Assembly: GCA_964611335.1 (NCBI GenBank)
Contig: CAZSXR010000002.1
Coordinates: 134,354-198,353 of the forward strand
From: an uncultured Pseudobdellovibrionaceae bacterium
Lineage (GTDB): Bacteria > Bdellovibrionota_B > Oligoflexia > Oligoflexales > Bog-1112
DNA: 64,000 nt
Direction of reading: 5' to 3'
Shown here: piece by piece, positions 136 through 45,690 of the stretch
Position numbering within the stretch: the first letter of the stretch is position 1
Layout: each line of letters opens with the position of its first letter
Notes under the pieces: generated by a model
Seen by the model: the letters and a program-made list of their open reading frames with translations, nothing else
Database searches by the model: none
What the model was told of the DNA's origin: nothing
Program-made: the position numbers and the translations under genes

Positions 136-369
136 TGCCTACATTCGGAAGAAAATGCAGTGATCAACTGTGATTCTCCTCGTTCTATGCCTAAAATTGT
201 TTTTGTAACGCATAGACCTTGTGTGAGCTGCGCGAAAAGACTGATCAATCTTGGAAATGTTCGTAAAGTTTATTATGCGAAAGAATACAGGTCGACTGAG
301 TCTAAAGATCTTTTCGCTTTGGTGGGGATTGATCTGGAACAAATAGAGCTGAGAGATCAGGTTCAGTAA
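1..369 (+). CDS. dCMP/cytidine-family deaminase, 3' part. The gene is interrupted by an intein whose C-terminal end lies in the window. The 5' end is upstream of the window.
   Basis: Frame 1 is open from base 1. After the junction the extein reads C-LHSEENAV ... PCVSCAKRLINLG, matching the H[AS]E..NA and PCxxC zinc-ligand motifs of the cytidine/dCMP deaminase fold. Stop TAA at 367-369. Confidence 0.8.
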   Translation, partial: ELGLHNGFSKVRVRTIERMVRTSPIYNLEVEEDNSYVCQGLVVHNCLHSEENAVINCDSPRSMPKIVFVTHRPCVSCAKRLINLGNVRKVYYAKEYRSTESKDLFALVGIDLEQIELRDQVQ

Positions 370-383
370 GGTGGCACCAATCT

Positions 384-866
384 CTATTTCGACATGTTTA
401 GTTCAGTCACAGAACCGAGATCTTTGATGCCTGAAACTTTCTTCTTATGAAGCTCATCAATACCAACGAAGTTAGAAGTATCTTGTTGAAGCATTTTGAT
501 CTGACCGTTGAATTTTGCACCTTGCTGAATGGTGAGAGAAGGCGTTTCTAAGTCTCCATCAAAGACAGCACTTTCACTTAATTCAATTTTCGAACTTACA
601 ACGAATGTACCCGTGCATTTTCCATGAAGGATGACGTCTTCTGCTTTGACATCCGCTTCGATAACCGCACTTTCTTCCAATATCAATGTACCTTCTGAAA
701 TAATCTCCCCTTCAATTCTTCCGCCAATGCGACTGGAACCTTTGCAATACAATTTTCCATTGAAATGACATCCTGATGTCAAAATTGTAACTGCAGATTC
801 ATCGGAAATGCTTCGGCGTATAGAGTTGAGAGTTCCTGCTCGTTTATTTTTACTAAAAAACATCAT
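384..866 (-). CDS. bactofilin-family polymer-forming cytoskeletal protein
   Basis: Repetitive beta-helix-like pattern (G.L.C.GS.RIGGRIEGEI.SEG.L.L.ES..IEADVKAEDV.L.G...G) typical of bactofilin/DUF583. The first ATG pair at 866/863 is preferred over the TTG-extended ORF start at 941. Confidence 0.8.
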   Translation of the reverse strand: MMFFSKNKRAGTLNSIRRSISDESAVTILTSGCHFNGKLYCKGSSRIGGRIEGEIISEGTLILEESAVIEADVKAEDVILHGKCTGTFVVSSKIELSESAVFDGDLETPSLTIQQGAKFNGQIKMLQQDTSNFVGIDELHKKKVSGIKDLGSVTELNMSK

Positions 867-926
867 ATTAAACCTCTTCCTGACAAGGGTATCCTTAAAA
901 CCATTATACCACAAAGAACATAGACG

Positions 927-966
927 CAAAAAAAGCCACATTTCGATAAGAAATGTGGCTTTTTTG
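927..966. terminator. bidirectional rho-independent terminator downstream of rpsI
   Basis: Perfect 9-bp stem GCCACATTT (935-943) / AAATGTGGC (951-959) with a 7-nt loop, flanked by an A-run (927-934) and a T-run (960-965). Confidence 0.8.
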
Positions 967-985
967 TTTTGCTTCTAAAACAGTT

Positions 986-1387
986 CTAACGTTTAGAGAA
1001 CTGGAAGCGCTTACGAGCACCAGGCTGACCTGGAAGTTTACGCTCTTTCTTACGAGCATCGCGTGTCAAGAGACCCGCTCTTTTCAAAATCTTGTGATGT
1101 GCTTCATCAAGCTTGGAGAGCGCTCTTGCAATCGCATGGCGAATTGCACCAGCTTGTCCTGAAAGACCTCCGCCTAACACGTTAATGTTGGCGTCATACT
1201 TACCTACGTTGTTTGTCAACTCAAATGGCTGCATAACGAGAACGCGGGATGTTGGTCTAATCAAATAAGCATCAACATTGCGACCGTTGATCGTAATTTT
1301 ACCATCGCCCTTTTTCAAGTTGAGACGCGCAACCGCAGTTTTGCGTTTGCCAATTGTACTTTGTATATATTTGGTAGCCATAAGCAT
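986..1387 (-). CDS. rpsI: 30S ribosomal protein S9
   Basis: Translation carries S9 hallmarks (GGGLSGQAGAIRHAIARAL ... RKKERKLPGQPGARKRFQFSKR). Confidence 0.97.
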   Translation of the reverse strand: MLMATKYIQSTIGKRKTAVARLNLKKGDGKITINGRNVDAYLIRPTSRVLVMQPFELTNNVGKYDANINVLGGGLSGQAGAIRHAIARALSKLDEAHHKILKRAGLLTRDARKKERKLPGQPGARKRFQFSKR

Positions 1388-1833
1388 TAAACTCCGTTTG
1401 CTATTCTCGGTTGTAGTGGGGTCGCTTTCTGAGCGCTATGAGGATGGTTGGCATCCTTGTAAACTTTCAGCTTTCTTAAGAAACGCTTACGCAATTTGTT
1501 CTTTGGAAGCATCCCCAAAACAGCAAAACGGATAAGACGGTCTGGGTAGGTCTTTTTCATTTCTTGCGCTGAAGTTGTCTTCAACCCGCCTGGGAATTGG
1601 CTATGATTGTAGTATTCTTTTTGGTTCCATTTATCGCCAGTCATCTCGATTTTATCTGCGTTTGTAACGATAACGAAATCGCCGCAGTCCATATAAGGGA
1701 CAAAATACGGCTTGTGTTTCCCGCGCAACACATCTGCAACCTGTGACGCCAAACGGCCTAATGTTTTTCCAGCGGCGTCTACGACTATCCAGTCTCTCTT
1801 AACGCTTGCCGGACTGATACTTGTGGTCCTCAT
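1387..1833 (-). CDS. rplM: 50S ribosomal protein L13
   Basis: MRTTSISPASVKRDWIVVDAAGKTLGRLASQVADVLRGKHKP... is classic L13. It abuts rpsI as in the conserved rplM-rpsI operon. The ATG at 1833 is preferred to the ORF start at 1851. Confidence 0.96.
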   Translation of the reverse strand: MRTTSISPASVKRDWIVVDAAGKTLGRLASQVADVLRGKHKPYFVPYMDCGDFVIVTNADKIEMTGDKWNQKEYYNHSQFPGGLKTTSAQEMKKTYPDRLIRFAVLGMLPKNKLRKRFLRKLKVYKDANHPHSAQKATPLQPRIANGV

Positions 1834-1957
1834 CCATGCTCTCCAAAACAATCGAGTTGTTGCACAACTCTAATATCTATACTGGCCATTTTCCAGCATT
1901 TTTCCCTATTTCATACGGTCTAGGAACGGCGAAATATATCCTGAACTCCAGGTAAAA

Positions 1958-3127
1958 TCAACACTTGTCTTGTACTTCGAGCCTTGGAATTTTCTTCCAT
2001 CCTGAATAGGAAACGAGGTCACCATAATACACTTGGTGGTAAATTGCCAAGATCTTACGCACTACACGTTCCCAAGTAAATTTTTTCACTCGCTCATAAC
2101 CCTTCCGAATGAGGGTCTCTCTCAAGATAGGATTATTCAAAAGCTGATACATAGCTTCCGTCAGCTCCCTCGCATCATAAGCATCGACGGTCAACGCCGC
2201 ATCCCCTACGACTTCGGGCAAAGAAGAGCTGTGAGAGGTCACAACAGGAGTTCCGCTTGCCATAGCCTCAAGGGGTGGAAATCCGAAGCCCTCATATAAA
2301 CTTGGGTACACTACGAACTTTGCCTCTCTGTAGTAGTTCCTCAAATTTTCTTCATCTACAAATCCTGCGAGAATGATGTCTTCCTTGAACTCAAGAATGC
2401 TCAATGAAAATTCAGCAAAAAGAGGACTCTCTCCTCCAATGAGTATGAGTTGTGTTTTAATTTCAGGATTTTTCTTTCGGAGTATTCCGTAGGCTTCTAC
2501 GAGAAGTTTGATATTTTTTCGGGGCTCTAAGGAACCAACATAAAGAATGTAATCTTTGCGTGGCCTGTCGATTGGATCTAAACTTTCTTTCTGCATAAAG
2601 AAATCATCAACAGCCCAATACACTAAAGAGATGTTGTCCAAACCTACTTTGCAATATTGCAATAAGTCATTTCGTGAATTGTTGCTGTTTGTAACAACAC
2701 GTGTTGCTTTTTTTACAATGCGTGGGATGACAAAGCGATACCAATTACGGAAAGCGACACTGTACCATTGTGGGTTTACAATAAAGCAAAGATCATGAAC
2801 GTGAACAATAGATTTACCTTTGTAAAACAAAGGAGCCATATTCGCAGGAGAGTGAAGAATATCGACTTTATACTGTCTTGCAAGTCGAGGAAGAACAAAC
2901 TGTTCCCAAAGTACATTGCGAAAAGTGTCTCCTGTCCTAAGATTAGACATCACAATTTTAACATTTGGATAATTCCATTCCTGCTGCTTCAATTCGCTCT
3001 GACCTGCAAAAAGAATGTATTCGTTCTCTCTATCGAAACGAAGAAGCGTAAGAACCATGTTCATTGCAGCACGTTGAACACCGGTTTGTTTGGTCATGAG
3101 AAAACGTCCGTTTATACCGATTCTCAT
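1958..3127 (-). CDS. GT-B fold glycosyltransferase (family 4-like)
   Basis: C-terminal EGFGFPPLEAMASGTPVVTSHSSSLPEVVGDAA is the GT4/GT1 E-x7-E region. Start MRIGINGRFL at 3127. Confidence 0.85.
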   Translation of the reverse strand: MRIGINGRFLMTKQTGVQRAAMNMVLTLLRFDRENEYILFAGQSELKQQEWNYPNVKIVMSNLRTGDTFRNVLWEQFVLPRLARQYKVDILHSPANMAPLFYKGKSIVHVHDLCFIVNPQWYSVAFRNWYRFVIPRIVKKATRVVTNSNNSRNDLLQYCKVGLDNISLVYWAVDDFFMQKESLDPIDRPRKDYILYVGSLEPRKNIKLLVEAYGILRKKNPEIKTQLILIGGESPLFAEFSLSILEFKEDIILAGFVDEENLRNYYREAKFVVYPSLYEGFGFPPLEAMASGTPVVTSHSSSLPEVVGDAALTVDAYDARELTEAMYQLLNNPILRETLIRKGYERVKKFTWERVVRKILAIYHQVYYGDLVSYSGWKKIPRLEVQDKC

Positions 3128-3131
3128 GCAT

Positions 3132-4229
3132 TTACTCGACACAGGAATTGTATAAAGCAAGAGTCTTCTCTGCCATGCCAGACCATGTAAATTTTTTGGA
3201 ATGTTCTATTCCTCTTTCACGAAGAGGGTTGTCTTTTGATCCTAGATTCAACATGAGGTCTCTTAAAACACCTCCGAAATTTTCTATATCTGTAGGATCT
3301 ACAAAGATTGCATTTTCTCCTACCACTTCTGGAAGACTTGAAGAACGGCTTACAACTACAGGAGCACCGCATGCAAGAGCTTCCAAGGGAGGAAGTCCGA
3401 AGCCTTCGTATCCCGACGGATATACAAAAAGTTTACATAAAGAATAAACAGCAGGCAGATGTTCTTCTTCTATAAAGCGGATAAAGTAGATCTGATGTTT
3501 TTTCCCATGGGTTTCCGCAAGAGTGATTAAGCTATTATCCGCGGGCCCTACAAGAACCAGAGGGTTTTCTAAATCCGATTGCACATAGGCACTGACCAGT
3601 TGGAAAACATTTTTATGAGGTTTGTTATTGGACAAGCAAAAAATAAAGGAATCAGGAAGTTCATACAATTCCTGAACGTATTCTAGAAAGCCAGGATCTT
3701 CCACTGGCTTGTAATGCTCAGACACACCGTTATAGGTTACGAAAATTTTATTTCTTTGAACCCCTAGGTACTTCACCATTTCATTTTTTGAAAATTCAGA
3801 AACTGTAAGCACACATTCACTTCTGCGCATCGCATAACGCACAAGTGTTTTGTAATAAAACTGATGCATGAATGTATAGTATTGAGGAAGCATAATATGG
3901 TTTAAATCATGAATGGTCATAATCATCTTCGATGGACAAAGAAAGGGTGCAACGAAAGAAGGAGAATGGAAGAGGTCTATACGAAGTTTTCTCAAAAGTC
4001 TAGGGATTGCCCACTGCTCTCGAAAACTAATCCACCTCGCATTCGTAGGAATCAATGTGATGTGATCTGGCCATTTAAGTTGAAAGAGCGGGCTGTTTTC
4101 AAAAACTATTAGAAAAAATTGATGTTCTGTTTTCATTGTTGACAAACAGCTTATCAATTCAAAGACATAACGGGCGATTCCATGCATGGAGCGCGGTTGA
4201 ATCATGCGACCATCGATGGCAACTCTCAT
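3132..4229 (-). CDS. GT-B fold glycosyltransferase (family 4-like), tandem paralogue of the downstream gene
   Basis: EGFGLPPLEALACGAPVVVSRSSSLPEVVGENA. Start MRVAIDGRMI at 4229. A 4-nt gap separates it from the next GT gene. Confidence 0.85.
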   Translation of the reverse strand: MRVAIDGRMIQPRSMHGIARYVFELISCLSTMKTEHQFFLIVFENSPLFQLKWPDHITLIPTNARWISFREQWAIPRLLRKLRIDLFHSPSFVAPFLCPSKMIMTIHDLNHIMLPQYYTFMHQFYYKTLVRYAMRRSECVLTVSEFSKNEMVKYLGVQRNKIFVTYNGVSEHYKPVEDPGFLEYVQELYELPDSFIFCLSNNKPHKNVFQLVSAYVQSDLENPLVLVGPADNSLITLAETHGKKHQIYFIRFIEEEHLPAVYSLCKLFVYPSGYEGFGLPPLEALACGAPVVVSRSSSLPEVVGENAIFVDPTDIENFGGVLRDLMLNLGSKDNPLRERGIEHSKKFTWSGMAEKTLALYNSCVE

Positions 4230-29325: not shown

Positions 29326-32300
29326 ATGAGAACTGCAATAGAAAATTTGGGATCGGTAGAAGGCTCTGCATCGCAAACGCCGTCATTATATACCTCTGCT
29401 GAAGAACGGATTCCAGACCTCAGGGAACCCAACGCTCCTGACGAAGAAGAATTGGAAGAATCTTCCAAGGGTTTTTTATCCGTTCATCGTCGAGACTTCA
29501 TGAGAATCTTCGGACTAACAGCTGCCGCTGGAGCCGCAAGTTCCTGCGTTCGCAGACCTGTAGAAAAAGCAGTTCCTTATGTAAACCAACCTGTAGATCA
29601 GGCACCAGGTATTGCTGTTCATTATGCATCAACCTGTAGCGCATGCCCTTCTGCTTGCGGAACTCTGGTGAAAACCCGAGAAGGAAGGCCTACTAAAATC
29701 GAAGGAAATGCAGAACACCCTGTGAATCAAGGGGGTTTATGCGCTGCTGGCCAAGCTGAAATTCAGGGACTTTATCATCCTGAACGATTCGAAGTACCAC
29801 AGGTTCGTGTATCAGGAAATTGGCAGAATGCGACATGGGAAAGCATGATGCCTCAGATTGTTGAAAAAGTGCGTGCTGCTAAAAAAGTGGGTATTTTTAC
29901 CCGCGGAGCAACAGGAAATCGTCATAAGTTTTTCGAAGACGTTTTGACGAGATTGGGTTCCAGCAATAACGAGCTGTATACTTGGGAAAGTAATTCTCTT
30001 TTCTCAACAATGTCTGAAGCACACAAATTAGCATTTGGTATTGGCGATCTACCACGAATTGAATTTAGCAAAGCACGTTATATATTGAGCATTGGAAGTG
30101 ATTTCCAAGTTACAGGTCTTTCTCCAGTCTTTTACTCTAAAGGTTTTTCAGAAGGAAGATCTGTTCGTTCAGGAAAGCGGTCAAAATTTGTTGCATTTGA
30201 AAGTCATCTTTCTATTACAGGTGCCAATGCAGACGTACGTCACGTCATTCCACCTACTTATGAAACGATTGTTGCACTCTTATTAGTCAAAGCACTTTAT
30301 GAAAACTCGACTTCAAAAGGAAGCGCACATGAACGCGCGGAAATTCACAAAGTTTTAAAGAACAAAGAATCTATTCTTGAAAATGCCTATAAAGATGTGG
30401 GTATTGCTCGCGATGTATTCGATGAAATTGCCAAAGAACTGATTGAACAAAGTTCTGTTGTAGTTAGCGGAAGCGGTGCAAGTTTTGATGAAAATGCAAC
30501 ACTCCTACAGATTGCAACCATTATGGCGAATACTTTGTGTGGTGCTTATGGGAACACACTTATATTCCACGAAGGATGGGCGAGATCACCGGTTCGTAAC
30601 GGAGATCTCGAACGATTTATGAAGGAGGGTTCACAGTTAGATGTGCTCTTCATCATAGATGCGGATCCTGTTTTTACAGTACCAGAAAGTTGGCAAATCG
30701 GAGATGTACTCTCTAAAATACCAACTGTTGTTTCCATGCAATATTTTCCAACGGAAAGTGATCGTTACGCACAATTTATAGTTCCAGTTCATCATAGTTT
30801 AGAATCTTGGGGAGATGAGAGTTCTATTGCAGGATTCTGGTCTATGCGACAACCCGTTGTGCGCCCTATCAAAGCAACTAGCCAAGCAGAAGATACCTTG
30901 CTTTGGATTCTTGCAAGCGTTGACAAACATTTGCCGTACAAAGACTACCGCTCCTATTTGAAAAAACAATGGGAAGCTGTGTATAGGTTGATGGCACCTT
31001 CTGTAACTTACGAAACTTTTTTCAAAGCTGTCATTCGCAGAGGATTTATTGGAAAACTGGAAGTGCGTTCTCCTGTTTTCGTACAAAGTGTTGTTCAACA
31101 TTTCCAATTTTTAAAAGCTCCTGTTTCCGACGGATTTGTTTTAGCAAGCACACTCGATCACCGACTTCTCGATGGACGAAGTGCGCACTTACCTGTTCTA
31201 CAAGAAATTGGAGATTCTCTAACGAGTGTTGCGTGGGATACATGGGTTGCTATGAACCCTCATACAATGAAAGAGAAAGGTCTTCATCGCAACAGTCTAG
31301 TGAAGATATCCGCAGCAGGTCAGAGTATAGAAGTCGCTGCTTATCCTCTTCCAGGATTGCATCCGAGGGCTGTGGTTATCCCGAGAGGGAATGGTCACGA
31401 AGATAATCGTAGTCGCATAAGTTACAAAAACGGAGTGAATCCTCTTAAAGTTTTTGCAAAAGCGATGGACCCTCTTTCACGTCAACCTGTCACAAGTGGA
31501 GTGACCGTTGAAATTTTAGACATGAAAAAGTTTTATCGTTTAGCTGCGATGCAGAAAGCTATAGATCTCGATGGTCGCACAGATATTGTGAAGACCATCT
31601 CTTTAGAAGATGCTTTGAAAAAGAAAAATCTTCAAAAAAGTTTGGATGAAGCTCCTGATCTATTCCCGAAATTAGAAGACAATGCACACCGTTGGGGACT
31701 TTCCATAGATTTGGATCGTTGCAATGGGTGCGGCGCGTGTATGGCTGCGTGTGCAGTTGAGAACAATGTTCCTCAAGCGGGAAGAGAACAGGTTCTTATG
31801 CACAGAGAAATGCATTGGATTCGATTGGATCGTTATTTCGAAGGAAATTTAGACAATCCTAAAGTGAGTATACAACCTGTCATGTGTCAGCATTGCAACA
31901 ATGCACCGTGTGAGGGTGTCTGTCCTGTTTTTGCGACGACGCATGATGCGGAAGGCATGAATTCGATGACCTACAATCGATGTGTAGGAACTCGTTATTG
32001 CGCGAACGCATGTCCATACAAAGTACGACGCTTCAACTGGTGGACTCACAAGTGGGGGGAAATCGGAGAACGTTTACAAGATAGAAACCCACGTCCTACG
32101 AATCCTGATGTCACCGTTCGTACACGTGGTGTGATGGAGAAATGTTCTCTTTGTGTGCAGCGTATTCGAGATGTGAAGCACAGAGCTAAAGAATTGAATA
32201 GACCTGTTCTCGATGGAGAATTTGTAACGGCCTGTGCTCAAACCTGTCCAAGCAATGCGATTGTTTCTGGAAATTTAAAAGATGCAGCAAGTCAGGTTTC

Positions 32301-32451
32301 AAGACTTCGTCAAGAAGGACGAGCGTATCTCATGTTGGGAGGGGCTCCAGAACATGATCATTTTGGACTCAGAACTCTTCCCAATGTTAGTTATTTGGCA
32401 GAAGTTTCTTTGGATGCAAAAGAGACATCGAAATCAGCTCACGAAAGTTGA
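29326..32451 (+). CDS. actB: alternative complex III subunit ActB (molybdopterin-oxidoreductase-like plus 4Fe-4S ferredoxin-like fusion)
   Basis: Twin-arginine motif HRRDFMRIFGL. The N-terminal half resembles the complex iron-sulfur molybdoenzyme family. The C-terminal half carries cysteine clusters (CNGCGACMAAC, CQHCNNAPC, CVGTRYCANACP, CSLCVQR). Confidence 0.9.
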   Translation: MRTAIENLGSVEGSASQTPSLYTSAEERIPDLREPNAPDEEELEESSKGFLSVHRRDFMRIFGLTAAAGAASSCVRRPVEKAVPYVNQPVDQAPGIAVHYASTCSACPSACGTLVKTREGRPTKIEGNAEHPVNQGGLCAAGQAEIQGLYHPERFEVPQVRVSGNWQNATWESMMPQIVEKVRAAKKVGIFTRGATGNRHKFFEDVLTRLGSSNNELYTWESNSLFSTMSEAHKLAFGIGDLPRIEFSKARYILSIGSDFQVTGLSPVFYSKGFSEGRSVRSGKRSKFVAFESHLSITGANADVRHVIPPTYETIVALLLVKALYENSTSKGSAHERAEIHKVLKNKESILENAYKDVGIARDVFDEIAKELIEQSSVVVSGSGASFDENATLLQIATIMANTLCGAYGNTLIFHEGWARSPVRNGDLERFMKEGSQLDVLFIIDADPVFTVPESWQIGDVLSKIPTVVSMQYFPTESDRYAQFIVPVHHSLESWGDESSIAGFWSMRQPVVRPIKATSQAEDTLLWILASVDKHLPYKDYRSYLKKQWEAVYRLMAPSVTYETFFKAVIRRGFIGKLEVRSPVFVQSVVQHFQFLKAPVSDGFVLASTLDHRLLDGRSAHLPVLQEIGDSLTSVAWDTWVAMNPHTMKEKGLHRNSLVKISAAGQSIEVAAYPLPGLHPRAVVIPRGNGHEDNRSRISYKNGVNPLKVFAKAMDPLSRQPVTSGVTVEILDMKKFYRLAAMQKAIDLDGRTDIVKTISLEDALKKKNLQKSLDEAPDLFPKLEDNAHRWGLSIDLDRCNGCGACMAACAVENNVPQAGREQVLMHREMHWIRLDRYFEGNLDNPKVSIQPVMCQHCNNAPCEGVCPVFATTHDAEGMNSMTYNRCVGTRYCANACPYKVRRFNWWTHKWGEIGERLQDRNPRPTNPDVTVRTRGVMEKCSLCVQRIRDVKHRAKELNRPVLDGEFVTACAQTCPSNAIVSGNLKDAASQVSRLRQEGRAYLMLGGAPEHDHFGLRTLPNVSYLAEVSLDAKETSKSAHES

Positions 32452-32511
32452 TCGAGGGATTCTTAGCTTGTTTTTAAAGATAATGAACACAGACGTGAAG
32501 TGGGGCGTGAG

Positions 32512-33885
32512 ATGAGTGAAGAAATCGAATGGAAGCGAACGGTGTCGGAAGTCAACGACGGGATTCTGATCGGTATCGATAAACCTGCTCGTTCGTACTA
32601 TGTCGCCCTCACCTTAGCGCTCATTTGTACTGCGATTGGAGCTTACTCTTGGATTAAGCTGATCAATGAAGGTGTGGGGATATGGGGTTTGAACAGTCCT
32701 GTTTATTGGGCTGTGGATATTACAAACTTCGTATTCTGGGTCGGTATAGGTCATGCGGGAACTTTGATTTCTGCAATCTTATTTTTGTTTCGCGCAAAAT
32801 GGCGGAATAGCATTAACCGCAGCGCAGAAGCGATGACAGTTTTTGCTGTGATTACAGCAGGACTGTTTCCCATGATTCACATGGGACGTTTTTGGGTAGG
32901 TTTTTATTGGATGCTACCTCTTCCCAATTCAAACAACCTTTGGTTGAACTTTCGCTCACCATTGATTTGGGACGTCTTTGCAATTTCAACGTATTTAACA
33001 GTGTCTCTTCTCTTTTGGTACATGGGTTTGGTTCCCGATCTTGCTTCAATTAGAGACCGCGTTAAAGGCTTTAGACGACTTGTTTATGGGTTGATGTCTT
33101 TCGGTTGGACAGGAACAGCGAGACAGTGGCATCACTATGAAACGGGTTATGGATTTTTAGCTGCTCTCGCAACACCCCTTGTTCTTTCTGTTCACTCCAT
33201 CGTTTCTTGGGACTTTGCGATGTCAATGCAACCAGGATGGCATACAACTATTTTTCCTCCTTACTTCGTCGCAGGCGCAATTTTATCGGGTTGTGCGATG
33301 GTTTACACCTTGGTGGTTCCTCTTCGTAAAATGTTTCAGTTGGAAGAGTTTATTCGTAAAGAACATCTGGAAGCTTTGATCAAGTTGACTTTGCTGACCT
33401 CTACCATCGTGTTTTATGCCTACGGAGTTGAGTTTTTCGTAGCATGGTTAAGTGGCAATGAATACGAGTGGGCTATATTTAGAAAAAGAGCAACAGGGCC
33501 TTATGCCTTTTATTTTTGGGTGATGGTTTCTTGCAACTGTTTTTTCCCTCTCGTGTTTTGGTCCAAAAGGGTGCGTAACAACATCACACTTTCCTTCATA
33601 GTCTGTGTGCTTGTGAATGTGGGTATGTGGTTTGAACGTTACAACATTATCGTTTCCAGTCTTGTGGAAGATTTTGTTCCAGGATCTTGGGCGCACTACG
33701 AACCCACCATTTGGGAAATAGCGGTGACACTTGGAAGTTTTGGATGGTTCTTCACTTGGATGTTGATCTTCTCAAGATTCTTCCCACTTGTTTCGATTTC
33801 AGAATTGAAACTGATTATGCCTAAACCTCTCCGCAAAAAGGCACATGCGACAATGATACAAGAAGGAGAAGCACATGGTTCATAA
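32512..33885 (+). CDS. actC: alternative complex III subunit ActC (NrfD/PsrC-like quinol-binding membrane subunit)
   Basis: Polytopic membrane protein of NrfD-like size and pattern, placed immediately after actB. Confidence 0.85.
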   Translation: MSEEIEWKRTVSEVNDGILIGIDKPARSYYVALTLALICTAIGAYSWIKLINEGVGIWGLNSPVYWAVDITNFVFWVGIGHAGTLISAILFLFRAKWRNSINRSAEAMTVFAVITAGLFPMIHMGRFWVGFYWMLPLPNSNNLWLNFRSPLIWDVFAISTYLTVSLLFWYMGLVPDLASIRDRVKGFRRLVYGLMSFGWTGTARQWHHYETGYGFLAALATPLVLSVHSIVSWDFAMSMQPGWHTTIFPPYFVAGAILSGCAMVYTLVVPLRKMFQLEEFIRKEHLEALIKLTLLTSTIVFYAYGVEFFVAWLSGNEYEWAIFRKRATGPYAFYFWVMVSCNCFFPLVFWSKRVRNNITLSFIVCVLVNVGMWFERYNIIVSSLVEDFVPGSWAHYEPTIWEIAVTLGSFGWFFTWMLIFSRFFPLVSISELKLIMPKPLRKKAHATMIQEGEAHGS

Positions 33886-34402
33886 AACTGAAAAACCAGG
33901 TGTCATGGCAATCTTCCAGTACTTCGATCAGTTCACAGAAGTTTTGGAAAAAATTCAGACCGAGAAAAAATTTGCGGGCCATGAAATCTACTCGCCTGTG
34001 TCCTATCACGAGTTGATGGATCATGCTGAGAAACTCTACGGACCCAGTGAGGTACGTTGGTTTACCTTAGTCGGAGCGCTTACAGGTATAGCCTCAGGAT
34101 TCGCACTTCCTTTGGGAATGGATTGGGATTGGCCTATTGTTGTAGGTGGAAAAACCGCAGGGATATATTCTATGCCTGCTTATTTTATTTTTGTGTTTGA
34201 GTTGATGGTTCTCTTCGGTGCTATAGCAACGATTATGGGCATGCTTGTTTTAGGACGCATTCCTAACCCTGAAGCAAAGATTCGTGACAAACGTTTAAGT
34301 GATGATCGCTTTGGGATTTTTGTTCCAGGTGTTTCTGTGGATAGTGAGCAGGCACAGATGTTGAAGCAGTGGGGAGCGGAAGACGTTTACGCTTCTACTT
34401 AA
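33875..34402 (+). CDS. actD: alternative complex III subunit ActD (DUF3341-like)
   Basis: 175 aa with a soluble N-terminal domain plus 2 TM segments. It overlaps actC by 11 nt and sits in the conserved position. Confidence 0.8.
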   Translation: MVHKTEKPGVMAIFQYFDQFTEVLEKIQTEKKFAGHEIYSPVSYHELMDHAEKLYGPSEVRWFTLVGALTGIASGFALPLGMDWDWPIVVGGKTAGIYSMPAYFIFVFELMVLFGAIATIMGMLVLGRIPNPEAKIRDKRLSDDRFGIFVPGVSVDSEQAQMLKQWGAEDVYAST

Positions 34403-34440
34403 CTCGCACCGAATATTTGAATGAAGACATATTGAGGATC

Positions 34441-35010
34441 ATGATGCGGAGCACATTCAAAAACATAATCCTAGCAGGAATGCTTCTTGGGACACTCAGT
34501 TCATGCACAGAGGATCCTAACGAAACAAAGATGCAGTATTTCCCGGACATGGCGGATTCTCCTGCAATAAAAACACAGGGGAATTACATAGATCCACCTG
34601 AAGGTTCTATAGCACGCACTGCTATTCTCTATCCTGATACTCCTGATGAAGCTGAAAAAATATTTTTCAATCCTCTTAAAGGACAAGCGAATGAAGCCAT
34701 GCATAAGGAAAACGGAAAACGTCTTTTCTTAATATATTGTGAGGTATGTCACGGTATTGATGCAAAAGGTGATAAAGGTCGTATTCAAGATAAATACCCT
34801 AGACCCGTTGATTTGACTCTCGACATGTATAAAAAACGAGGAGATGGATTTTTCTTCCATCGTATTACACACGGTTCTGCTGTGATGCCAAAATATGGAC
34901 ATTCAACGACACCGGATGAGCGATGGGAAATCATCATGCACTTACGTGATTTGCAAAATCAAGTTCCTGCTCCTTCATCTGAACCTTCTATAAACGGTGA
35001 AAAAAAATGA
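34441..35010 (+). CDS. actE: alternative complex III subunit ActE (monoheme cytochrome c lipoprotein)
   Basis: Lipobox LGTLSSC, a single CEVCHG heme site and a distal Met region (SAVMPKYG). Confidence 0.85.
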   Translation: MMRSTFKNIILAGMLLGTLSSCTEDPNETKMQYFPDMADSPAIKTQGNYIDPPEGSIARTAILYPDTPDEAEKIFFNPLKGQANEAMHKENGKRLFLIYCEVCHGIDAKGDKGRIQDKYPRPVDLTLDMYKKRGDGFFFHRITHGSAVMPKYGHSTTPDERWEIIMHLRDLQNQVPAPSSEPSINGEKK

Positions 35011-37549: not shown

Positions 37550-38929
37550 CTATTTCTGAACATCCCACAAAACAGCACCAACGTTACCTGTATAAGGTCT
37601 CGAACTCGATGGAGTGATATCGGGACCATCAGGATTGTAAGTGAAATAAGTATCATGCATATAAACTGTCAATATTTTTCCGTTTGGTAATTGAACGGAG
37701 TGAGGAGAGTGCATCGCTGTATTATTTTGTCTTGTAATGATGTATCGATGATTCCAGTCCCATGTATTCCCATTGTCATGACTCACAACGGCTTCAACAC
37801 CATGAAAAACTTGACCATCCAGCTGTCCCACACGGACACCATAGGTCATCAAAATATCTCCATTGTGTAGCAAGAGCAGACTAGAATGCATTCTTCCGTA
37901 AAGAAAATGTTGAACAGGTAATGACCATGTTTTTCCATTATCTTTCGAAACTGTTGTTGCAAGACCCATAAAATGATCACTTGGAATAGGAGTCCCCACA
38001 AGTTGGGTTCGAAAGGCTGCTACAAGATTATGATTTCTTGCACGTATAATAGAGCCCTCATTGAGTCCCCATGCTCTATTTAAAAGAACAGGTTCTTCCC
38101 ATTTTTTCGTATCTCTATGAAAAGTAAGGATACCCCCTTGAGTGAATAAATGCTCCTCAAATTTTGAAGGAGGGGTATCGAGTAAAAACCAACATGCTAA
38201 CTTAATGGTATCTTTTTCAATAAGGTGACTATAGGCAACATCGGTATTACAAGTTTTACTTCCCCATCGTGGAAGCGCAGTTTCCGAATGCCAATCAGGA
38301 ATTCCATGAGGCCAAGGCCATGATGACAAAATAAAATGAGAATTAGGAAGAAGAACAAACAACTGATTCCCTGCATTCATGGGAGTTCCTCTATACCAAC
38401 TCGTCCGTAACGGCTTCGTCCACTTCAATCCATCTTTAGAAGTTAAAATATATCCTACTCTTGTATTTTCTTTCTCATCCATAGCAGAAATTGTGAGTAC
38501 AATAGTCCCATCATCCATAATCGTTAAACTTGGGAACTTAGGATTGTTCAACAAGAAACTATAACCGAGATCTTCAAAGTAACGTTTATGATGCCCTTCG
38601 ATTTGAGTTACAACGACATGCGAAATAGGAGTCGTTAAACGATCACGTAAATAAAATGCATAATCATTCTGTTGGTCAAGTTTAAGGATAGTCTTATAAT
38701 CTAAACGGTCAATTTTCGCAGAGATTGGATCTAGATTTTTATTTACTGGAGAATGCCCAGGAGGAAGGTGACCTCTTGTATGAATCTCAACATCAAAGGA
38801 CGCTTTCACTTCTTGCTTCGATGAAATGTTTTCTTTCACCATATCCTCGTCCCGTCGAGATGTAGATTTACATTCCGATAAAAAAAATAGGGTAAGCAGC
38901 AGCAGAATTTTATTCTTATAAGAACCCAT
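37550..38929 (-). CDS. BNR/Asp-box repeat glycosidase (sialidase-like), secreted or lipoprotein
   Basis: Three Asp-boxes: TSKDGLKWT, VSKDNGKTWS and VSHDNGNTWD. N-terminal LLLLTLFFLSEC. Confidence 0.75.
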   Translation of the reverse strand: MGSYKNKILLLLTLFFLSECKSTSRRDEDMVKENISSKQEVKASFDVEIHTRGHLPPGHSPVNKNLDPISAKIDRLDYKTILKLDQQNDYAFYLRDRLTTPISHVVVTQIEGHHKRYFEDLGYSFLLNNPKFPSLTIMDDGTIVLTISAMDEKENTRVGYILTSKDGLKWTKPLRTSWYRGTPMNAGNQLFVLLPNSHFILSSWPWPHGIPDWHSETALPRWGSKTCNTDVAYSHLIEKDTIKLACWFLLDTPPSKFEEHLFTQGGILTFHRDTKKWEEPVLLNRAWGLNEGSIIRARNHNLVAAFRTQLVGTPIPSDHFMGLATTVSKDNGKTWSLPVQHFLYGRMHSSLLLLHNGDILMTYGVRVGQLDGQVFHGVEAVVSHDNGNTWDWNHRYIITRQNNTAMHSPHSVQLPNGKILTVYMHDTYFTYNPDGPDITPSSSRPYTGNVGAVLWDVQK

Positions 38930-39064: not shown

Positions 39065-40882
39065 TCAGTATTTTTTACAGTCGGGGACGCTCGCAGAGGT
39101 CATCTCTTCTTTAAGTCCACGAGCATAAGCTTCCGCTTGAATGGCGCAAGCATTGGTTCCTTTATGAAGAATTTTGTCAGCTTCCATAAGAGACTGCACA
39201 AGGTCTGGGAAACCTGCAGATATGGGAAAAAACTCAATAGCTTTTAAAGTGTCTCTTGCTGCGGTATCGAGACCAATTTTTTTACCTATACTCCAGAGCA
39301 TCCCAGAAATGAATTGAGATTGCTGATGAGGTTCCGTTGGCATGTTAGGATCTAGAAAAGACCAGTTGTTATTTGAAGAACGCAGACACTGAGCAGAGAT
39401 GCACAAAGTTCCACCACGAGGGCAAATGAGATTTCCCAAACAAGGACTCTTTGTTCGTGCCATAACGAAAAAATCTGCGAGACCTTCGTGGATTATGAGT
39501 GAATCACCTGAAGTTGTTTTTAAAGTTTGATAAACAACATGGTGTCCTGCTTCATGTGAAACTGCATCCGAATCGATTTGAAGATTTTGCAATATGACAC
39601 CGTCTCCGTTGCCCAATTTTATATAAGGTCCTGCTCCGGTATTTTTATCAGGCGGTATATATACTGCAGAATTATTGACACCCATATTTGTATAGTCCAA
39701 CTTTAATTGCACGCGAGGACTAGGCCAAGATTTTAAAATTCCACTACCTTCTTGAAGAAACCAATTTGAGTGCAATGTCGCGTTTGTAAAGACGGAAGCC
39801 TGATTGAAATGATAATCATTAGGCTTAAAATTAAATTCTGCATTATTTACAGTTGCAACATTGAGGGATGTATTTGTAGGGGGATTATCCACTACTATTC
39901 TAAAACGTGTGCTACACAACGAACCTCCTTTGCTGAGTCCATTCAACTTTAAATTTGTAAGAACGAGGTTAGTACTACTCAGAGGAACCTTTTGATAAGT
40001 AGTCGTGATTGCTGGAGCTGTTGTATCTGAAAAATAGGAAGGAGCTGCTTTGTAAATAATTTGATTATCAGGATTTTCAGGAGTTGGATTGTAAACAACA
40101 AGCCCATAGTAAGGTAAATTGTTATAATTAAAACGCACTTCCCATGCTGCAAGAAGTTTTGTTTTATCCACATTTGGATCATAAAAAAGGCATTTATTTT
40201 CATAAACGTTGGTGCTTGTGCTTGAAATGGAGCCATTGCCAACAGAGATAGTTGTAGTTTCTGTTTCTACATTTTGATTTGTGGGTATTGTATCAACATT
40301 AGTTGCAATTTGATTTGAAGTACTTACAAAACTTTTTGACCCTATTATTTTCTCAAGAGAATCTAAGGAAGAACCTCCACCGAGCGCAAGGATTTTTGCA
40401 ATCTCGTCGATACGATTATCTGTTAATTTATCACTTTTATCCCACACTGTTTGGTCAATGGTGTTTGTAGGAATATTTGTGGGAATCAATCCCTTTACCA
40501 GAGTTCTTTCTGAAGACACACTGACTCTTGCATAAAACTGACATAAAGAAGTTCCACCAATTGAAAAATTAAAATTAGCATGGTCCCAGTGAGGCCCATG
40601 AAGATAGGAATCAGGATCTACTTGTGATTCAATAGGTGTTTTAATGAGGTCATTAATAACAGCTTGAGCTTTTTCTACGAAGTAAGGAGCCTCAGGTCCT
40701 GCTAGAGAAAGACCTGTAGCATTGGATAAGTTCTCAGATGCAAGCGTCGGACAGATGTTATCGACCGCCATTGCATTACTTGAATTTTTTGATGTGGGAG
40801 TAGGATTGATACATTGAATATTTAGAAAGCAGAAAACCACTGAAAAAAATAAGAATAAACCCGTTTTTTGAAAAATGACCAC
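39065..40882 (-). CDS. secreted zinc metalloprotease (gluzincin, HExxH...E)
   Basis: Signal peptide, then AVSHEAGHHVVY followed 18 aa later by IHEGLADFF (third-ligand Glu context). Confidence 0.75.
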   Translation of the reverse strand: MVIFQKTGLFLFFSVVFCFLNIQCINPTPTSKNSSNAMAVDNICPTLASENLSNATGLSLAGPEAPYFVEKAQAVINDLIKTPIESQVDPDSYLHGPHWDHANFNFSIGGTSLCQFYARVSVSSERTLVKGLIPTNIPTNTIDQTVWDKSDKLTDNRIDEIAKILALGGGSSLDSLEKIIGSKSFVSTSNQIATNVDTIPTNQNVETETTTISVGNGSISSTSTNVYENKCLFYDPNVDKTKLLAAWEVRFNYNNLPYYGLVVYNPTPENPDNQIIYKAAPSYFSDTTAPAITTTYQKVPLSSTNLVLTNLKLNGLSKGGSLCSTRFRIVVDNPPTNTSLNVATVNNAEFNFKPNDYHFNQASVFTNATLHSNWFLQEGSGILKSWPSPRVQLKLDYTNMGVNNSAVYIPPDKNTGAGPYIKLGNGDGVILQNLQIDSDAVSHEAGHHVVYQTLKTTSGDSLIIHEGLADFFVMARTKSPCLGNLICPRGGTLCISAQCLRSSNNNWSFLDPNMPTEPHQQSQFISGMLWSIGKKIGLDTAARDTLKAIEFFPISAGFPDLVQSLMEADKILHKGTNACAIQAEAYARGLKEEMTSASVPDCKKY

Positions 40883-42398: not shown

Positions 42399-42716
42399 TT
42401 ACGTACTTTCAATTGTGCGCTGCGCAATTTTAACCCAATGACAACATTTCTTTATAGACTCTTTTAAAACTAGATCAATTCCCGGGAATGATTTACCTTC
42501 AATAAAACAGCAATTTACGGATTCCATATCCATTATGGCATTATTCAGTGGAATAAAAAATTCTAGAGGAAAACAATCTACAGCATCTCTCAAAAACTCC
42601 AGTTCACCAATTAAAGTCTGCAAATCAAGCAACTCACAATTATACTGTTCTATAGCATTTTCCATGCGAGCTATGTGACGAAGATTGATATCTTCAATAT
42701 CATCTACTTTTTTCAT
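42399..42716 (-). CDS. candidate immunity protein for the upstream Hint-domain toxin
   Basis: 105-aa acidic, Cys-rich protein with no signal peptide. Its start lies 4 nt after the toxin stop. Assignment is by position only. Confidence 0.5.
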   Translation of the reverse strand: MKKVDDIEDINLRHIARMENAIEQYNCELLDLQTLIGELEFLRDAVDCFPLEFFIPLNNAIMDMESVNCCFIEGKSFPGIDLVLKESIKKCCHWVKIAQRTIEST

Positions 42717-42720
42717 AATC

Positions 42721-44049
42721 TTATCGTTTTCCCAGTATTGTAGTTATGACTCGTCCTGTTGCTTCATCTGTCACAATAGTAATATCATTCTGTGGAGAGT
42801 AGTATCTAATACGGTCAGGACTTGGGTCAGCAGATTTAACACCATTTTTAATTGTATCTTCAACTACTGTAGGCGTAAGCCCACGATTTTGCATTTGATC
42901 TAAAGCATGTCCAGAATATTCGCGATCACCTATTTTTTCTGGTGTGTTTCTATTGGGTTGAAATTTTGGTTGTCGTAATTCAAACGCTTCACTCTTTGGT
43001 ATACCTAGTTCCTTATTTTCAGATATACCCCTTCGTCCCTTAAAACCAGTTTCTCCTTCAGACGTTATTTGAGAAGTCCCTTGTCCTTCGTGATTAAAAA
43101 TTGTCTCTACTATGACATTTGCACCATGCCCGGCTAAAGCAGCACTAGCTCCTACGACAGCAACTCCAGCAGGAGCTGCTGCGCAGGCAGTGCCTACACA
43201 AGATGCAGCAACTTCCGAGGCTCCTGCTAAGATTCCAGTGGTCCCTACTGCAACCTGTGCTGTTCCACCCAATGTTTGACCTGTAGCTCGTCCTATTTCG
43301 AAAGCATCTGATCCCTGAGGAGGATGCTGGGAAGCTCCAGGCATACTTTCGCTAAGCCCTACAGCAAAACCTTTTCCGAATTCCTTAGCACCATTACAGT
43401 TATGTACTAACGCCGCACTTGCTAAACACTGTCCATTTCCAACTACAAAATAATTGTGCGTCGTATCCACTCTAATGTCATAGACTTCAATCGGCTCTTC
43501 AAAAGTGCGACGAAGCAGGGATTCAATTCTCAGAGACCCTGTAGTTCCTTTAACCAAATCACCTTTTTTCAAAGCCCATGCACTAACCCACTCTCCACCG
43601 ACAAAGAAAGGATGATCATCTGTAGCTTCTATAAGCTGACCATTGTCTAAGCGAATCTCTATGAGAGAATTTGTTAGAATTCTAAAAACTTCTTCGACTT
43701 TTTTCGAAACAAAAGAGTCGGAAACTTCGTCATATGAGAGAACGCTTTCACCTACTTGAATATCCTGGATCTCTTTGCACTCAGGTTGCTCTTGTGAAAG
43801 AAGAACGTAGGTTCCCTTGGTAAAACACGCTTGCTTAAATTTTAATGCAAAATCATTTGGTACAGAAGCTTTGAGCTTTCTATCCCACTGCGCTACTCTT
43901 TCGTCAGATTCAAGAGCTTGAAGTTGAGACTGAATTTCCGCTTCTGCCGCTGCAAATTGTCTTGCTTCAGCGTCACTGAGCTGTTTTTGCATAGCAAAAA
44001 CATTGAGGGATACTATTCCTAATAGGAATACTAAGACTTTTGTTTTCAT
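42721..44049 (-). CDS. secreted polymorphic-toxin-like protein: signal peptide, coiled coil, Hint (intein-like) domain, Gly/Ala-rich hydrophobic segment, and a C-terminal domain of about 90 aa
   Basis: MKTKVLVFLLGIVSLNVFA signal peptide. Hint domain Cys75...TDDHPFF...VYDIRVDTTHNYFVVG...LVHN217-C218. Hydrophobic GGTAQVAVGTTGILAGASEVAASCVGTACAAAPAGVAVVGASAALAG. C-terminus EYSGHALDQMQNRGLTPTVVEDTIKNG...ITIVTDEATGRVITT. Confidence 0.75.
   Translation of the reverse strand: MKTKVLVFLLGIVSLNVFAMQKQLSDAEARQFAAAEAEIQSQLQALESDERVAQWDRKLKASVPNDFALKFKQACFTKGTYVLLSQEQPECKEIQDIQVGESVLSYDEVSDSFVSKKVEEVFRILTNSLIEIRLDNGQLIEATDDHPFFVGGEWVSAWALKKGDLVKGTTGSLRIESLLRRTFEEPIEVYDIRVDTTHNYFVVGNGQCLASAALVHNCNGAKEFGKGFAVGLSESMPGASQHPPQGSDAFEIGRATGQTLGGTAQVAVGTTGILAGASEVAASCVGTACAAAPAGVAVVGASAALAGHGANVIVETIFNHEGQGTSQITSEGETGFKGRRGISENKELGIPKSEAFELRQPKFQPNRNTPEKIGDREYSGHALDQMQNRGLTPTVVEDTIKNGVKSADPSPDRIRYYSPQNDITIVTDEATGRVITTILGKR
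43399..43827 (-). other. Hint domain (143 aa mini-intein / BIL-like, no endonuclease insert) inside the toxin gene
   Basis: Contains block A Cys (ACFTKGT), block B TxxH (TDDHPFF) and blocks F/G (VYDIRVDTTHNYFVVG...ALVHN) followed by Cys. Confidence 0.8.
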
Positions 44050-44069
44050 TTTCTAACCTTTCTTAAATT

Positions 44070-45635
44070 TTATAATTCGTCTTTAGAACTCTCAACATCA
44101 AAGTAATCTTGCACTGTTTTTGCAGCTACAAAAAAACCTTTCCAAAAATTAAGGTCGTCAGGACTTTTAGACATGAAGGCAAAACTCTCTCCTTTTTCCT
44201 GTATAAGGTTTACATAAGCTGCGGTTGGGAAAAGCACTGTGTCTGGTTTGTACTTATAGTATTCAGTCAATTCTTGATCTTGAATGAAAGAAATCAAATT
44301 TGAAAAACCTGAAAAAATTCCTACGTTTATTAAAAGATTCGAAGACCATGGAAGGAAAAGAGAAGCAATCATTTTTCGGATATTGATCTCCTGCTCAAAG
44401 GAAAGATCAACTATATTTGTTTCTTTAGTCACCATTGCTGTAAATTTGTTTATTACCTCTCTAGCTAAAGAGATATGCAAGAAAAAAGGATAAAATAACA
44501 CCTGATAGTCTTCTTCGTCTTTATATTTCTCATAGAGTTGGAAAATGTTTTCTTCAAATCCTTGCGGCAACTCTAAATATTGCAATCTGAGAACAAATGT
44601 TGAAGCTCCTCCTTCCTTGTTATTATTAATGACGTCATAAGCTCTTTTCTTATTTAAACTTACGAGATCCAAAACTACCTGATAAGGAATGGAAATGTAT
44701 TCAAAAGAGGTATCATCCCAAGTACCCTTCAAAATAAATCCACCAGATGTGTTGTATCCATAATTTTTATAAAGAGTATCGTCGAAACCTACTAATGCCA
44801 AAGCATGGCCGTCATCTCCATCATGGCTATATTCTACAAGTTCTTGGTAAAACTTATCCCACACAGTTTTTGAAATTTCACGAGTGATTATGTGCTCCTC
44901 AGGAACATTAAGAACCTTTCTTTCAAACAAAGTTCCTTTACTAAAAGAAGGATCAGCAAACAAAGCAAATGATGGATTTGAAAAACTAAAGATCGCAGGT
45001 TTACCATTGAGAATAGTTTCTTTTCATACTCTGATTGGATCTTTGTCCTTCCCAAGAAACATATCAAAGCCAGGTAAATTGTGTGAAAGTATATGAGTTC
45101 GAATGATAGGCCAGCCAGACTTATATTCTGCAGGAACATTCGCCAATCTTGGAGGAATCAAATGTTGTGCTCCACGATTAGGCGCTGTGAAATGCGGACT
45201 TGTCATTCTATGTTCTTCGGGGTGCATGTAATAAGGCAAAACAGAGCCATGTTTTTCTAGAAAATCTGTACTTTGCTCATCGAAAAAAACATCAGAGTAT
45301 ACTAATGCTTCAGTATTTAAGTGTCTCGATTTGTCTATAATCAAACGTAAGGAGTATAGGAAGTGTAGTAAACTCAACCTTACAGGTTTTCCAATTTTTT
45401 GAAAATGGTGTTCGAGAGCGCTTAGAAATGCTGCCGCATGACAGGTCGCTCCCATTTGCTGAATTCCCTCAGGACGTAGAATAGGTTTTGTAGGAATAAA
45501 TTTGGATGCTAGTTCTGCTGCGTGTGCAATTTGAAATGAAAAAGAAAGCAACAAACAAAATGTCGCTACTATTTTTACAGAATTTTTCACAGGGTCTCCT
45601 AAAACTGAAGAGGAGAGTGTGACTACACCTTTCAC
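44070..45635 (-). pseudogene. secreted papain-fold (clan CA, C1-like) cysteine peptidase interrupted by a single in-frame TGA at 45024-45026
   Basis: ORFs 45635-45024 and 44963-44070 are in the same frame. The upstream part has a signal-like segment and Q-x5-C (IQQMGATCHAAAFLSALE). The downstream part has DGDDGHALALVGFDD and GGFILKGTWDD (His and N-S-W-like regions). The 20 codons between the TGA and the TTG are open. Confidence 0.7.
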
Positions 45636-45671: not shown

Positions 45672-45690
45672 AATGTCATCGCATGACATT
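45672..45690. promoter_or_regulatory. perfect palindrome upstream of the peptidase/toxin cassette
   Basis: AATGTCAT cgc ATGACATT, 37-55 nt upstream of the peptidase start codon (45635, minus strand). Confidence 0.3.

Follow-up and report, generated by a model that had tools for sequence, protein, structure and literature searches.

A probable chromosomal polymorphic-toxin locus, with a HINT-domain protein and a likely C1-like peptidase gene broken by a nonsense codon, in an uncultured Pseudobdellovibrionaceae bacterium

Polymorphic toxins are recognized by a constant trafficking and processing part that is joined to unrelated C-terminal toxin domains. One of their listed classes, dependent on the type II secretion system (T2SS) or Sec, combines a signal peptide with a HINT domain (Zhang, Iyer, Aravind et al. 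2012, PMC3482391). In Neisseria, the maf loci have the order mafA-mafB-mafI; class 1 MafB proteins may have a domain of the bacterial intein-like (BIL) type before their variable C-terminus, and MafA, encoded upstream of mafB, is needed for MafB secretion (PMC4287609, PMC7738311). At the level of the toxin domain, DUF4258 is a type of Escherichia coli CdiA C-terminal region (CdiA-CT) and has been annotated “tRNase (?)” (PMC11630599). Here we describe a cassette that shares features with each of these. It lies on the minus strand, at positions 42399-45635, of a 64,000-nucleotide (nt) stretch of DNA, termed the window, from an uncultured Pseudobdellovibrionaceae bacterium (contig CAZSXR010000002.1 of assembly GCA_964611335.1). 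In the direction of transcription it comprises a gene for a likely peptidase, a gene for a HINT-domain protein with the build of a secreted toxin, and a small gene in the position of an immunity gene.

The cassette is probably a chromosomal polymorphic-toxin locus of the Sec-exported, HINT-processed class. A first-pass annotation of this DNA had described three closely spaced minus-strand genes, and that arrangement is found: 20 nt separate the peptidase stop codon from the ATG of the toxin gene, 4 nt separate the toxin stop codon from the ATG of the 105-amino-acid (aa) open reading frame (ORF), and the ribosome-binding site GAAAGG is located at 44062-44057, 7 nt 5′ of the toxin ATG. The same annotation took the peptidase gene to be a single intact ORF, which it is not. 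The ORF listing of the window contains four ORFs in the cassette rather than three, since an in-frame TGA breaks the peptidase gene into an N-terminal half of 203 aa (45635-45024) and a C-terminal half of 297 aa (44963-44070, with a called start at TTG 44963). These are followed by the toxin ORF (44049-42721, 442 aa) and the 105-aa ORF (42716-42399).

The middle gene had been described as encoding a secreted HINT-domain toxin, and its product has each of the expected parts: a hydrophobic, signal-like N-terminus, a strong match to PT-HINT, a Gly/Ala-rich stretch and a C-terminal domain. Residues 1-19 (43993-44049) form a Sec-type signal peptide, MKTKVLVFLLGIVSLNVFA, which is followed by MQKQ; the signal junction xNxFA-[LM]QKQ is found again in relatives. 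Residues 20-74 (43828-43992) form an Ala/Glu/Gln-rich linker, the N-extein, which in an alignment of relatives is poorly conserved in both sequence and length. Residues 75-217 (43399-43827) make up a complete HINT domain of the PT-HINT, intein-like type, with Cys75, T143-x-x-H146 and H216-N217. The Pfam model PT-HINT (PF07591) matches residues 92-217 with an E-value of 4.5e-16 (59.8 bits against a cut-off of 27.7), and the intein N-terminal block TIGR01445 (residues 75-150) and C-terminal block TIGR01443 (residues 188-210) reach 33.3 and 18.6 bits against cut-offs of 24.5 and 15.6, respectively. Moreover, C75, T143 with H146, H216-N217 and C218 (in the context LVHN217-C218) are invariant in the aligned full-length relatives. 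This means that all residues for intein-type N- and C-terminal reactions are present. A homing intein was considered and ruled out: the domain is not flanked by a host-protein extein, and no model fits better than PT-HINT.

Between the HINT domain and the toxin domain lies a Gly/Ala-rich pre-toxin module (residues 218-312; 43114-43398), which extends from the +1 residue Cys218 to a conserved H308-G309. Ala accounts for 23% and Gly for 19% of its residues, and hydrophobic windows lie at approximately 282-305. In the alignment this module is conserved as well as the HINT domain itself, with an invariant G, E, G..FE.GR..G, Q...G and terminal HG. LVHNC and GR.(T)G...HG are invariant across the relatives, and conservation ends abruptly past the HG, where an acidic, variable linker (residues 313-336; 43042-43113) marks the recombination junction. 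Pfam reports no family at E-values up to 1 in residues 218-335 of the window protein or in its relatives. The PT-TG model of Pfam does not match the module; a GR.TG motif is present there and has no proving value.

The C-terminal domain (residues 337-442; 42724-43041) is of the DUF4258 type, a predicted ribonuclease (RNase) with a BECR fold, and is basic, with an isoelectric point (pI) of 9.3. R376, Y378, H381, D384, Q387, R389 and G390 are conserved in it. The first-pass annotation had been reminded of DUF4258 and BECR-fold RNases at this place, and profile and structure comparisons point the same way, with borderline statistics. DUF4258 (PF14076) is the best C-terminal Pfam match, at residues 378-412, and for the window protein as for six relatives it is the sole one; of these relatives, P0004 passes the cut-off at 26.9 bits and the other five fall below it; the Pfam scan of the toxin also contains a trace match to Colicin E5. 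A structure model that covers the last 119 residues and draws on three homologs contains a hairpin, two helices (57-66 and 70-79) and four strands; in its core the predicted local distance difference test (pLDDT) score is 85-90. Its top match in the PDB is CdiA-CT NC101 (5i4q, 5i4r; E-value 1.6e-3, probability 1.00, template modeling score 0.56-0.61 on the target), and the next are RelE, CdiA-CT O32:H37 and colicin D, all of which are BECR-fold RNases. At the sequence level, the family profile of the domain has no match among PDB sequences. Taken together, a polymorphic toxin with a BECR RNase domain is very probable, and RNase activity is predicted from fold and family.

It is in the comparison with relatives that the polymorphic character of the protein is seen. 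A word-based search with the toxin returned three relatives, which are 42-46% identical in their last ~100 residues only and have otherwise different N-terminal parts, one of them with its own PT-HINT domain; the C-terminal domain of the window protein is found, then, on three other N-terminal architectures. An exhaustive HMMER search with toxin residues 1-335 returned seven proteins with both HINT domain and Gly/Ala module (P0012, P0013, P0014, P0019, P0024, P0033 and P0040) and two further N-terminal fragments (P0016 and P0146). With the window protein, this makes eight proteins in which the HINT domain and module are followed by at least five unrelated C-terminal domains: the DUF4258 type of the window, a second DUF4258 type termed B-type (P0014, P0019 and P0024), the type common to P0013 and P0040, that of P0012 and that of P0033. 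A constant trafficking and processing part is joined to unrelated toxin domains in this family, as the definition of polymorphic toxins demands.

The delivery part varies as well. P0040 is a protein of 2031 aa with a signal peptide and hemagglutinin-like repeats, and it has the same C-terminal domain as the short, signal-peptide-bearing P0013. P0024 is preceded by a 661-aa repeat ORF with an 8-nt overlap (2005-2012), and the two are probably one gene split by a frameshift. Two of the eight proteins are filamentous-hemagglutinin-type giants, and the HINT domain with its Gly/Ala module is not particular to the Sec form. The HINT-module-toxin cassette moves between delivery architectures, which is the defining behavior of polymorphic toxins. 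The family is rare in current data, with approximately 10 loci. Two scans of Joint Genome Institute (JGI) metagenome contigs, one by the toxin alignment and one by the post-HINT module, recovered no relative.

Three features of these related loci are recorded in their own right. The C-terminal domain common to P0040 and P0013 has no name and contains the pattern ...GPE.HP.R...H.GPV.H.PV. At L017, positions 27-3735 encode a hemagglutinin-repeat protein that ends in the HINT domain and Gly/Ala module. At L016, a HINT-module-DUF4258 gene without signal peptide and without the first HINT Cys (635-2043) stands together with a small ORF behind a MepB-like gene, with a Fic gene nearby; it looks like an orphan toxin-immunity cassette.

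The 105-aa ORF directly downstream of the toxin gene encodes an acidic, cytoplasmic protein (pI 4.6, charge -8, no signal peptide), opposite in charge to the basic toxin domain. It is an orphan in sequence: Pfam, NCBIfam and PADLOC contain no match to it, comparison with PDB sequences gives noise only, and BLASTP and hhalign comparisons with the ORFs downstream of related toxins found nothing significant. Its position has a clear parallel in the relatives. At all readable loci with a DUF4258-type toxin, an acidic ORF of 92-105 aa overlaps the toxin gene, abuts it or follows within 14 nt; in every locus a small acidic ORF follows the toxin, and it changes with the C-terminal domain. The three B-type toxins share one family of downstream ORF. 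The small ORFs of P0002 (L010 1935-2213) and P0004 (L013 960-1235) are homologous to each other, with the motif WDPIGV..PEA.DEYDSY, and unrelated to the 105-aa ORF. These distinct small-ORF families indicate that one toxin domain family pairs with at least three immunity families. The 105-aa ORF had been called an immunity-like protein; position, size and charge fit this description and make an immunity function reasonably likely. No homolog of it is detectable. A separate observation concerns L005, in which the place of an immunity protein, after a HINT toxin whose C-terminal domain is different, is taken by a DUF6896 protein (2789-3202; 7.5e-27); DUF6896 is a candidate immunity family.

The first gene of the cassette is interrupted by the TGA at 45026-45024. 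The 203-aa and 297-aa ORFs share one frame, they are parted by this single TGA, and the codons beyond it read on unbroken. In the homologs the corresponding position is Leu (CTC in L001, TTG in L015 and TTG in L005); the intact homolog P0010, of 510 aa, is 44% identical over 93% of the merged peptidase and has Leu there, as does P0011. The Leu of the homologs and the unbroken frame indicate that the peptidase is one gene with a nonsense mutation. That the TGA might be recoded, as selenocysteine or Trp, was ruled out, given the Leu in homologs and the fact that all other long ORFs of the window are normal with table 11. The more likely start of the gene is not 45635 but GTG 45590, which is preceded by AGGAG at 45600-45596 and yields a 24-aa signal peptide, MKNSVKIVATFCLLLSFSFQIAHA. 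The N-terminal part of the peptidase (45027-45590) contains, after this signal peptide, the putative oxyanion Gln and catalytic Cys in QQMGATCHAAAF. The C-terminal part (44070-45023) contains the putative catalytic His in DGHALALVGFDD, the motif ILKGTWDD and a family-specific C-terminal region of ~200 aa.

These motifs resemble, in part, those of a papain-like enzyme. In QQMGATCHAAAF the Gln stands five or six residues before the Cys, and Q, C65, H277 and W306 are conserved. In distant homologs the Asn before S/T-W is also kept (RNSW, RNTW). A ten-member family profile matches the C1A protease Cwp84 with E-values of 0.006-0.007, solely around the His..Trp region; around the same region it matches Lpg2622 (E-value 0.29) and 3ois (E-value 0.77), and matches to SERA5 are weak (E-value ~1). 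From its sequence, the protein is likely to be a peptidase with a C1-like papain fold. The toxin-linked peptidases form a distinct subfamily, with TCHAAAF and KGTWDD and with loss of an insert of ~30 aa. All matches of the peptidase in the genome collection are metagenome-assembled genomes (MAGs) of Bdellovibrionota (Pseudobdellovibrionaceae, Bacteriovoracaceae, Bdellovibrio and Bdellovibrionales), which points indirectly to this phylum for the window too. Among Bdellovibrionales MAGs, a conserved four-gene set was also observed at L002 (6326-11497) and L009 (6250-11560), in which a leucine-rich repeat (LRR) protein and two uncharacterized secreted proteins are followed by a peptidase homolog as the last gene.

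A peptidase homolog is located directly upstream of the signal-peptide form of the toxin in five of the six informative loci, namely the window, L001, L005, L014 and L015 (the sixth is L018; L019 is too short to tell). The linked homologs at the four loci other than the window have 38-49% identity. At L001 the gap to the toxin gene is 29 nt, and the toxin, which starts MKTLLSLLALLFSLNVFALQKQ, is cut after 45 residues. At L005 the gap is 15 nt, the toxin has a different C-terminal domain and a DUF6896 ORF follows downstream; at L014 the two genes overlap; and at L015 the gap is 22 nt. The orphan locus L016 and the hemagglutinin-type locus L017 are without a peptidase. Wherever the taxon of a paired locus is known, it is Bdellovibrionota. 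The linkage is real and not universal; what the peptidase is linked to is the constant part of the toxin, and neither the toxin domain nor the immunity gene is involved. The first-pass annotation had asked whether its three genes are ever conserved together: the peptidase-toxin pair is, and the full triplet is not. Both the C-terminal domain and the ORF downstream differ among loci, which is what polymorphic toxins lead one to expect. A functional coupling between peptidase and toxin we consider an even question, and that the coupling consists specifically in proteolytic processing is a tentative suggestion, on the improbable side. As a side observation, an NTase_sub_bind and NTP_transf_2 pair, which resembles HEPN/MNT toxin-antitoxin genes, lies just upstream of the peptidase homolog at L001 (508-1184) and L004 (526-1202).

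Several results weigh against the reading of the cassette as a polymorphic-toxin locus with a peptidase partner. At the toxin domain, the DUF4258 match of the window protein reaches 24.6 bits, just below the cut-off of 25, and the Foldseek E-value of the model (1.6e-3) is borderline. For the 105-aa ORF, the word-based homolog search returned the ORF itself alone, and its similarity to the B-type immunity family covers 24 residues with an hhalign E-value of 0.016 and a probability of 2.8%, which is not significant. The remaining points concern the peptidase. There is no intact coding sequence for it in this genome; neither half, nor the intact homologs P0010 and P0011, matches any model in Pfam, NCBIfam or PADLOC; the AlphaFold2 model of P0010, made from a four-row alignment, is unusable (pLDDT 37.7); and the toxin-linked peptidases, including that of the window, have Gly at the position of papain's catalytic Asn (KGTW against RNSW). 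In addition, distant homologs (21-27% identity) occur in operons without a HINT toxin, and at L018 the 385 nt that can be read upstream of the toxin contain no peptidase. The papain-fold, clan CA label given at first pass is, then, weakly supported: the weak profile similarity to Cwp84 speaks for it, and the lack of a curated-model match and the substitution of the catalytic Asn by Gly do not.

It could be that the peptidase works on its own, as a secreted hydrolase or effector of a predatory bacterium, and is co-transcribed with the toxin but does not act on it, so that the system proper is a toxin-immunity pair. The distant homologs with 21-27% identity favor this, as their operons contain LRR and uncharacterized secreted proteins in place of a HINT toxin; the intact toxin gene beside a broken peptidase gene, the relative without an upstream peptidase and the self-sufficiency, in principle, of HINT domains for cleavage fit it too. 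What an independent enzyme leaves unexplained is the tight adjacency, which is kept in five loci despite divergence to 38-51% identity and a swapped downstream part, and the separation of the toxin-linked peptidases, by TCHAAAF, KGTWDD and the lost ~30-aa insert, as a subfamily of their own. We regard this explanation as a serious rival, if a somewhat unlikely one.

The nonsense codon itself gives rise to another explanation, in which all that this genome has is a non-functional, decaying remnant of the cassette. The codon lies in the first gene of the operon, and polarity could lower expression of the genes downstream. It is seen in two assemblies: the peptidase halves are separate protein records in both the NCBI assembly and an independent Logan assembly, which argues against an assembly slip, although the underlying reads may be identical. 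Against decay, the toxin and 105-aa ORFs are full length, all conserved residues of the HINT and DUF4258 domains are intact, the GC content at third codon positions (GC3; 0.25-0.29) fits that of the neighboring genes, and a ribosome-binding site precedes the toxin gene. A non-functional remnant is unlikely on balance. Either the toxin is used in this genome with no help from the peptidase, or decay of the cassette is setting in.

The gene order also brings to mind an export partner similar to MafA, that is, a peptidase-like protein that moves the toxin over, or anchors it onto, the outer membrane, with proteolysis secondary or absent. The order of mafA-mafB-mafI is the same, MafB depends on MafA for its secretion, the toxin-linked subfamily lacks the classical catalytic Asn, and a conserved region of ~200 aa follows the protease core. 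Yet the protein has no sequence similarity to MafA, no lipobox and no beta-barrel signature, and the strict conservation of its Cys and His motifs favors catalysis; a MafA-like role is quite improbable. An intracellular type II toxin-antitoxin pair, in which the 105-aa ORF would be the partner of the C-terminal domain, can be dismissed as extremely improbable, for although DUF4258 and RelE-like folds occur in toxin-antitoxin systems and DUF4258 is often so annotated in surveys of them, the domain is here fused behind a signal peptide, HINT domain and pre-toxin module, the small ORF lies downstream instead of upstream, and polymorphic toxins, CdiA-like ones among them, end in this same domain.

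If the cassette is, as we think probable, a Sec-exported polymorphic-toxin locus, its parts suggest the following sequence of events. Given the signal peptide, Sec would carry the precursor over the inner membrane. The HINT domain, given its conserved catalytic residues, would then cut at the HN/C junction by Asn cyclization, or would splice itself out; this would free a fragment that consists of the Gly/Ala module and the RNase domain. The hydrophobic module may aid in crossing or inserting into the membrane of the target cell, as do CdiA-CT entry domains. Such a translocation role is proposed because of the module's composition, conservation and position and its analogy to those domains. In the target cytoplasm the BECR domain would cleave tRNA or rRNA, while in the producer the acidic 105-aa protein would bind the basic RNase domain and block it. 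By analogy to MafA for MafB and Cwp84 for SlpA, we favor, as the most likely role of the peptidase, a part in the toxin's maturation, its release or its passage through the outer membrane.

A bolder proposal can be made, and we consider it rather unlikely: that short Sec-exported HINT toxins of predatory Bdellovibrionota strictly depend, for their maturation or export, on a separately encoded, secreted C1-like peptidase as partner, and that the Gly/Ala module is a new entry module common to Sec- and hemagglutinin-type toxins. If true, this would be a two-gene delivery route for RNase toxins, without the known specialized secretion systems and perhaps directed against prey. If the peptidase partnership and the module are functional, an accessory factor and a pre-toxin translocation element, both new, would join the repertoire of polymorphic toxins, and bacteria of a predatory phylum would carry immunity-protected RNase toxins that are delivered after plain Sec export. 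One would then have to ask if their use lies in predation or in competition among predators.

The surroundings of the cassette are those of a chromosome. As its GC3 shows, the codon usage of the cassette is like that of the neighboring genes, and the flanks encode housekeeping functions (alternative complex III, PGI, MiaE, thymidylate synthase and a glycosyltransferase). The alternative complex III operon, with a molybdopterin/4Fe-4S subunit, NrfD, ActD and cytochrome c, is located at 29326-35010 on the plus strand and indicates that the window is ordinary chromosome. No secretion-system genes were seen in the flanks of the cassette, no second copy of the toxin, peptidase or immunity gene is present elsewhere in the window, and PADLOC found no defense-system match. 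Two minus-strand neighbors may be mentioned. A 605-aa protein (39065-40882) with a lipobox-like N-terminus and a zincin-type HEAGHH...EGLADF motif has no Pfam match and, from this motif, may be an unclassified secreted metalloprotease. A 459-aa ORF (37550-38929) has a sub-threshold match to the sialidase-like repeat BNR_2 (5.1e-07, 29.8 bits against a cut-off of 31.4).

Upstream of the peptidase gene, the perfect palindrome reported at first pass is present. It spans 19 nt at 45672-45690, with the sequence AATGTCAT-CGC-ATGACATT, approximately 80 nt upstream of the likely peptidase start, and overlaps a weak -35-like ATGACA. The surrounding 4 kb contain three further perfect 8-nt and three perfect 9-nt inverted repeats, so a palindrome with 8-nt arms is not unusual here. 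The motif occurs a single time in the window, and it was not found upstream of the L001 homolog or in related loci. The palindrome could be an operator, a candidacy without support from these comparisons.

How does the locus compare with the systems that were introduced at the outset? The combination of Sec export with a HINT domain had been put forward as undescribed. That claim falls, since the class is already listed (PMC3482391) and Maf shows the same pattern of accessory gene, toxin and immunity gene. As in the class of Zhang and colleagues, there is a signal peptide, a HINT domain before a variable toxin domain, a probable immunity gene directly downstream and an exchange of C-terminal domains between architectures. 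The window toxin differs in that it is without repeats or a large N-terminal domain and has a Gly/Ala module between the HINT and toxin domains. Moreover, its peptidase is encoded separately and upstream, whereas the releasing peptidases of that survey are domains inside the toxin polypeptide. The HINT domain itself shares with BIL/PT-HINT domains the Cys1, the TxxH, the terminal HN, the +1 Cys and the setting in a secreted hypervariable protein, and at the domain level no difference was found.

The likeness to Maf is one of gene order and logic. In both, a gene for a secreted accessory protein is followed by a polymorphic toxin with a signal peptide and then by an immunity gene, here a putative one; export is Sec-dependent, by prediction in the window, and both are restricted in lineage. 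In place of the MafA lipoprotein, the candidate accessory protein is here a likely C1-like peptidase, the two are not similar in sequence, and a Pfam scan of the window proteins found no match to the MafA lipoprotein or to DUF1020. With the CdiA-CT toxins (NC101, 5i4q/5i4r; DUF4258 type, PMC11630599), the window protein shares the BECR fold, as predicted from its model, and relatives of its HINT-module-CT cassette end hemagglutinin-repeat proteins. It has no two-partner secretion (TPS) domain, no filamentous hemagglutinin (FHA) repeats, no VENN motif and no CdiB neighbor, and is 18-19% identical to the solved toxins.

For the peptidase, the nearest known counterpart is Cwp84 of Clostridioides difficile (4d59, 4ci7), a secreted C1A protease that matures a co-secreted S-layer precursor. 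It is the best match of the family profile (E-value 0.006), near the catalytic His and the Trp; the similarity is weak and local, and the C-terminal domains differ. As it stands, the locus mainly extends the PT-HINT and DUF4258/BECR families to a poorly sampled lineage and provides a small set of comparable loci. Sec-exported PT-HINT polymorphic toxins, DUF4258/BECR toxin domains and upstream accessory genes, as in Maf, are already known. Within the literature searched, the separate C1-like peptidase partner, the Gly/Ala post-HINT module as a shared pre-toxin element and the occurrence in Bdellovibrionota appear to be new.

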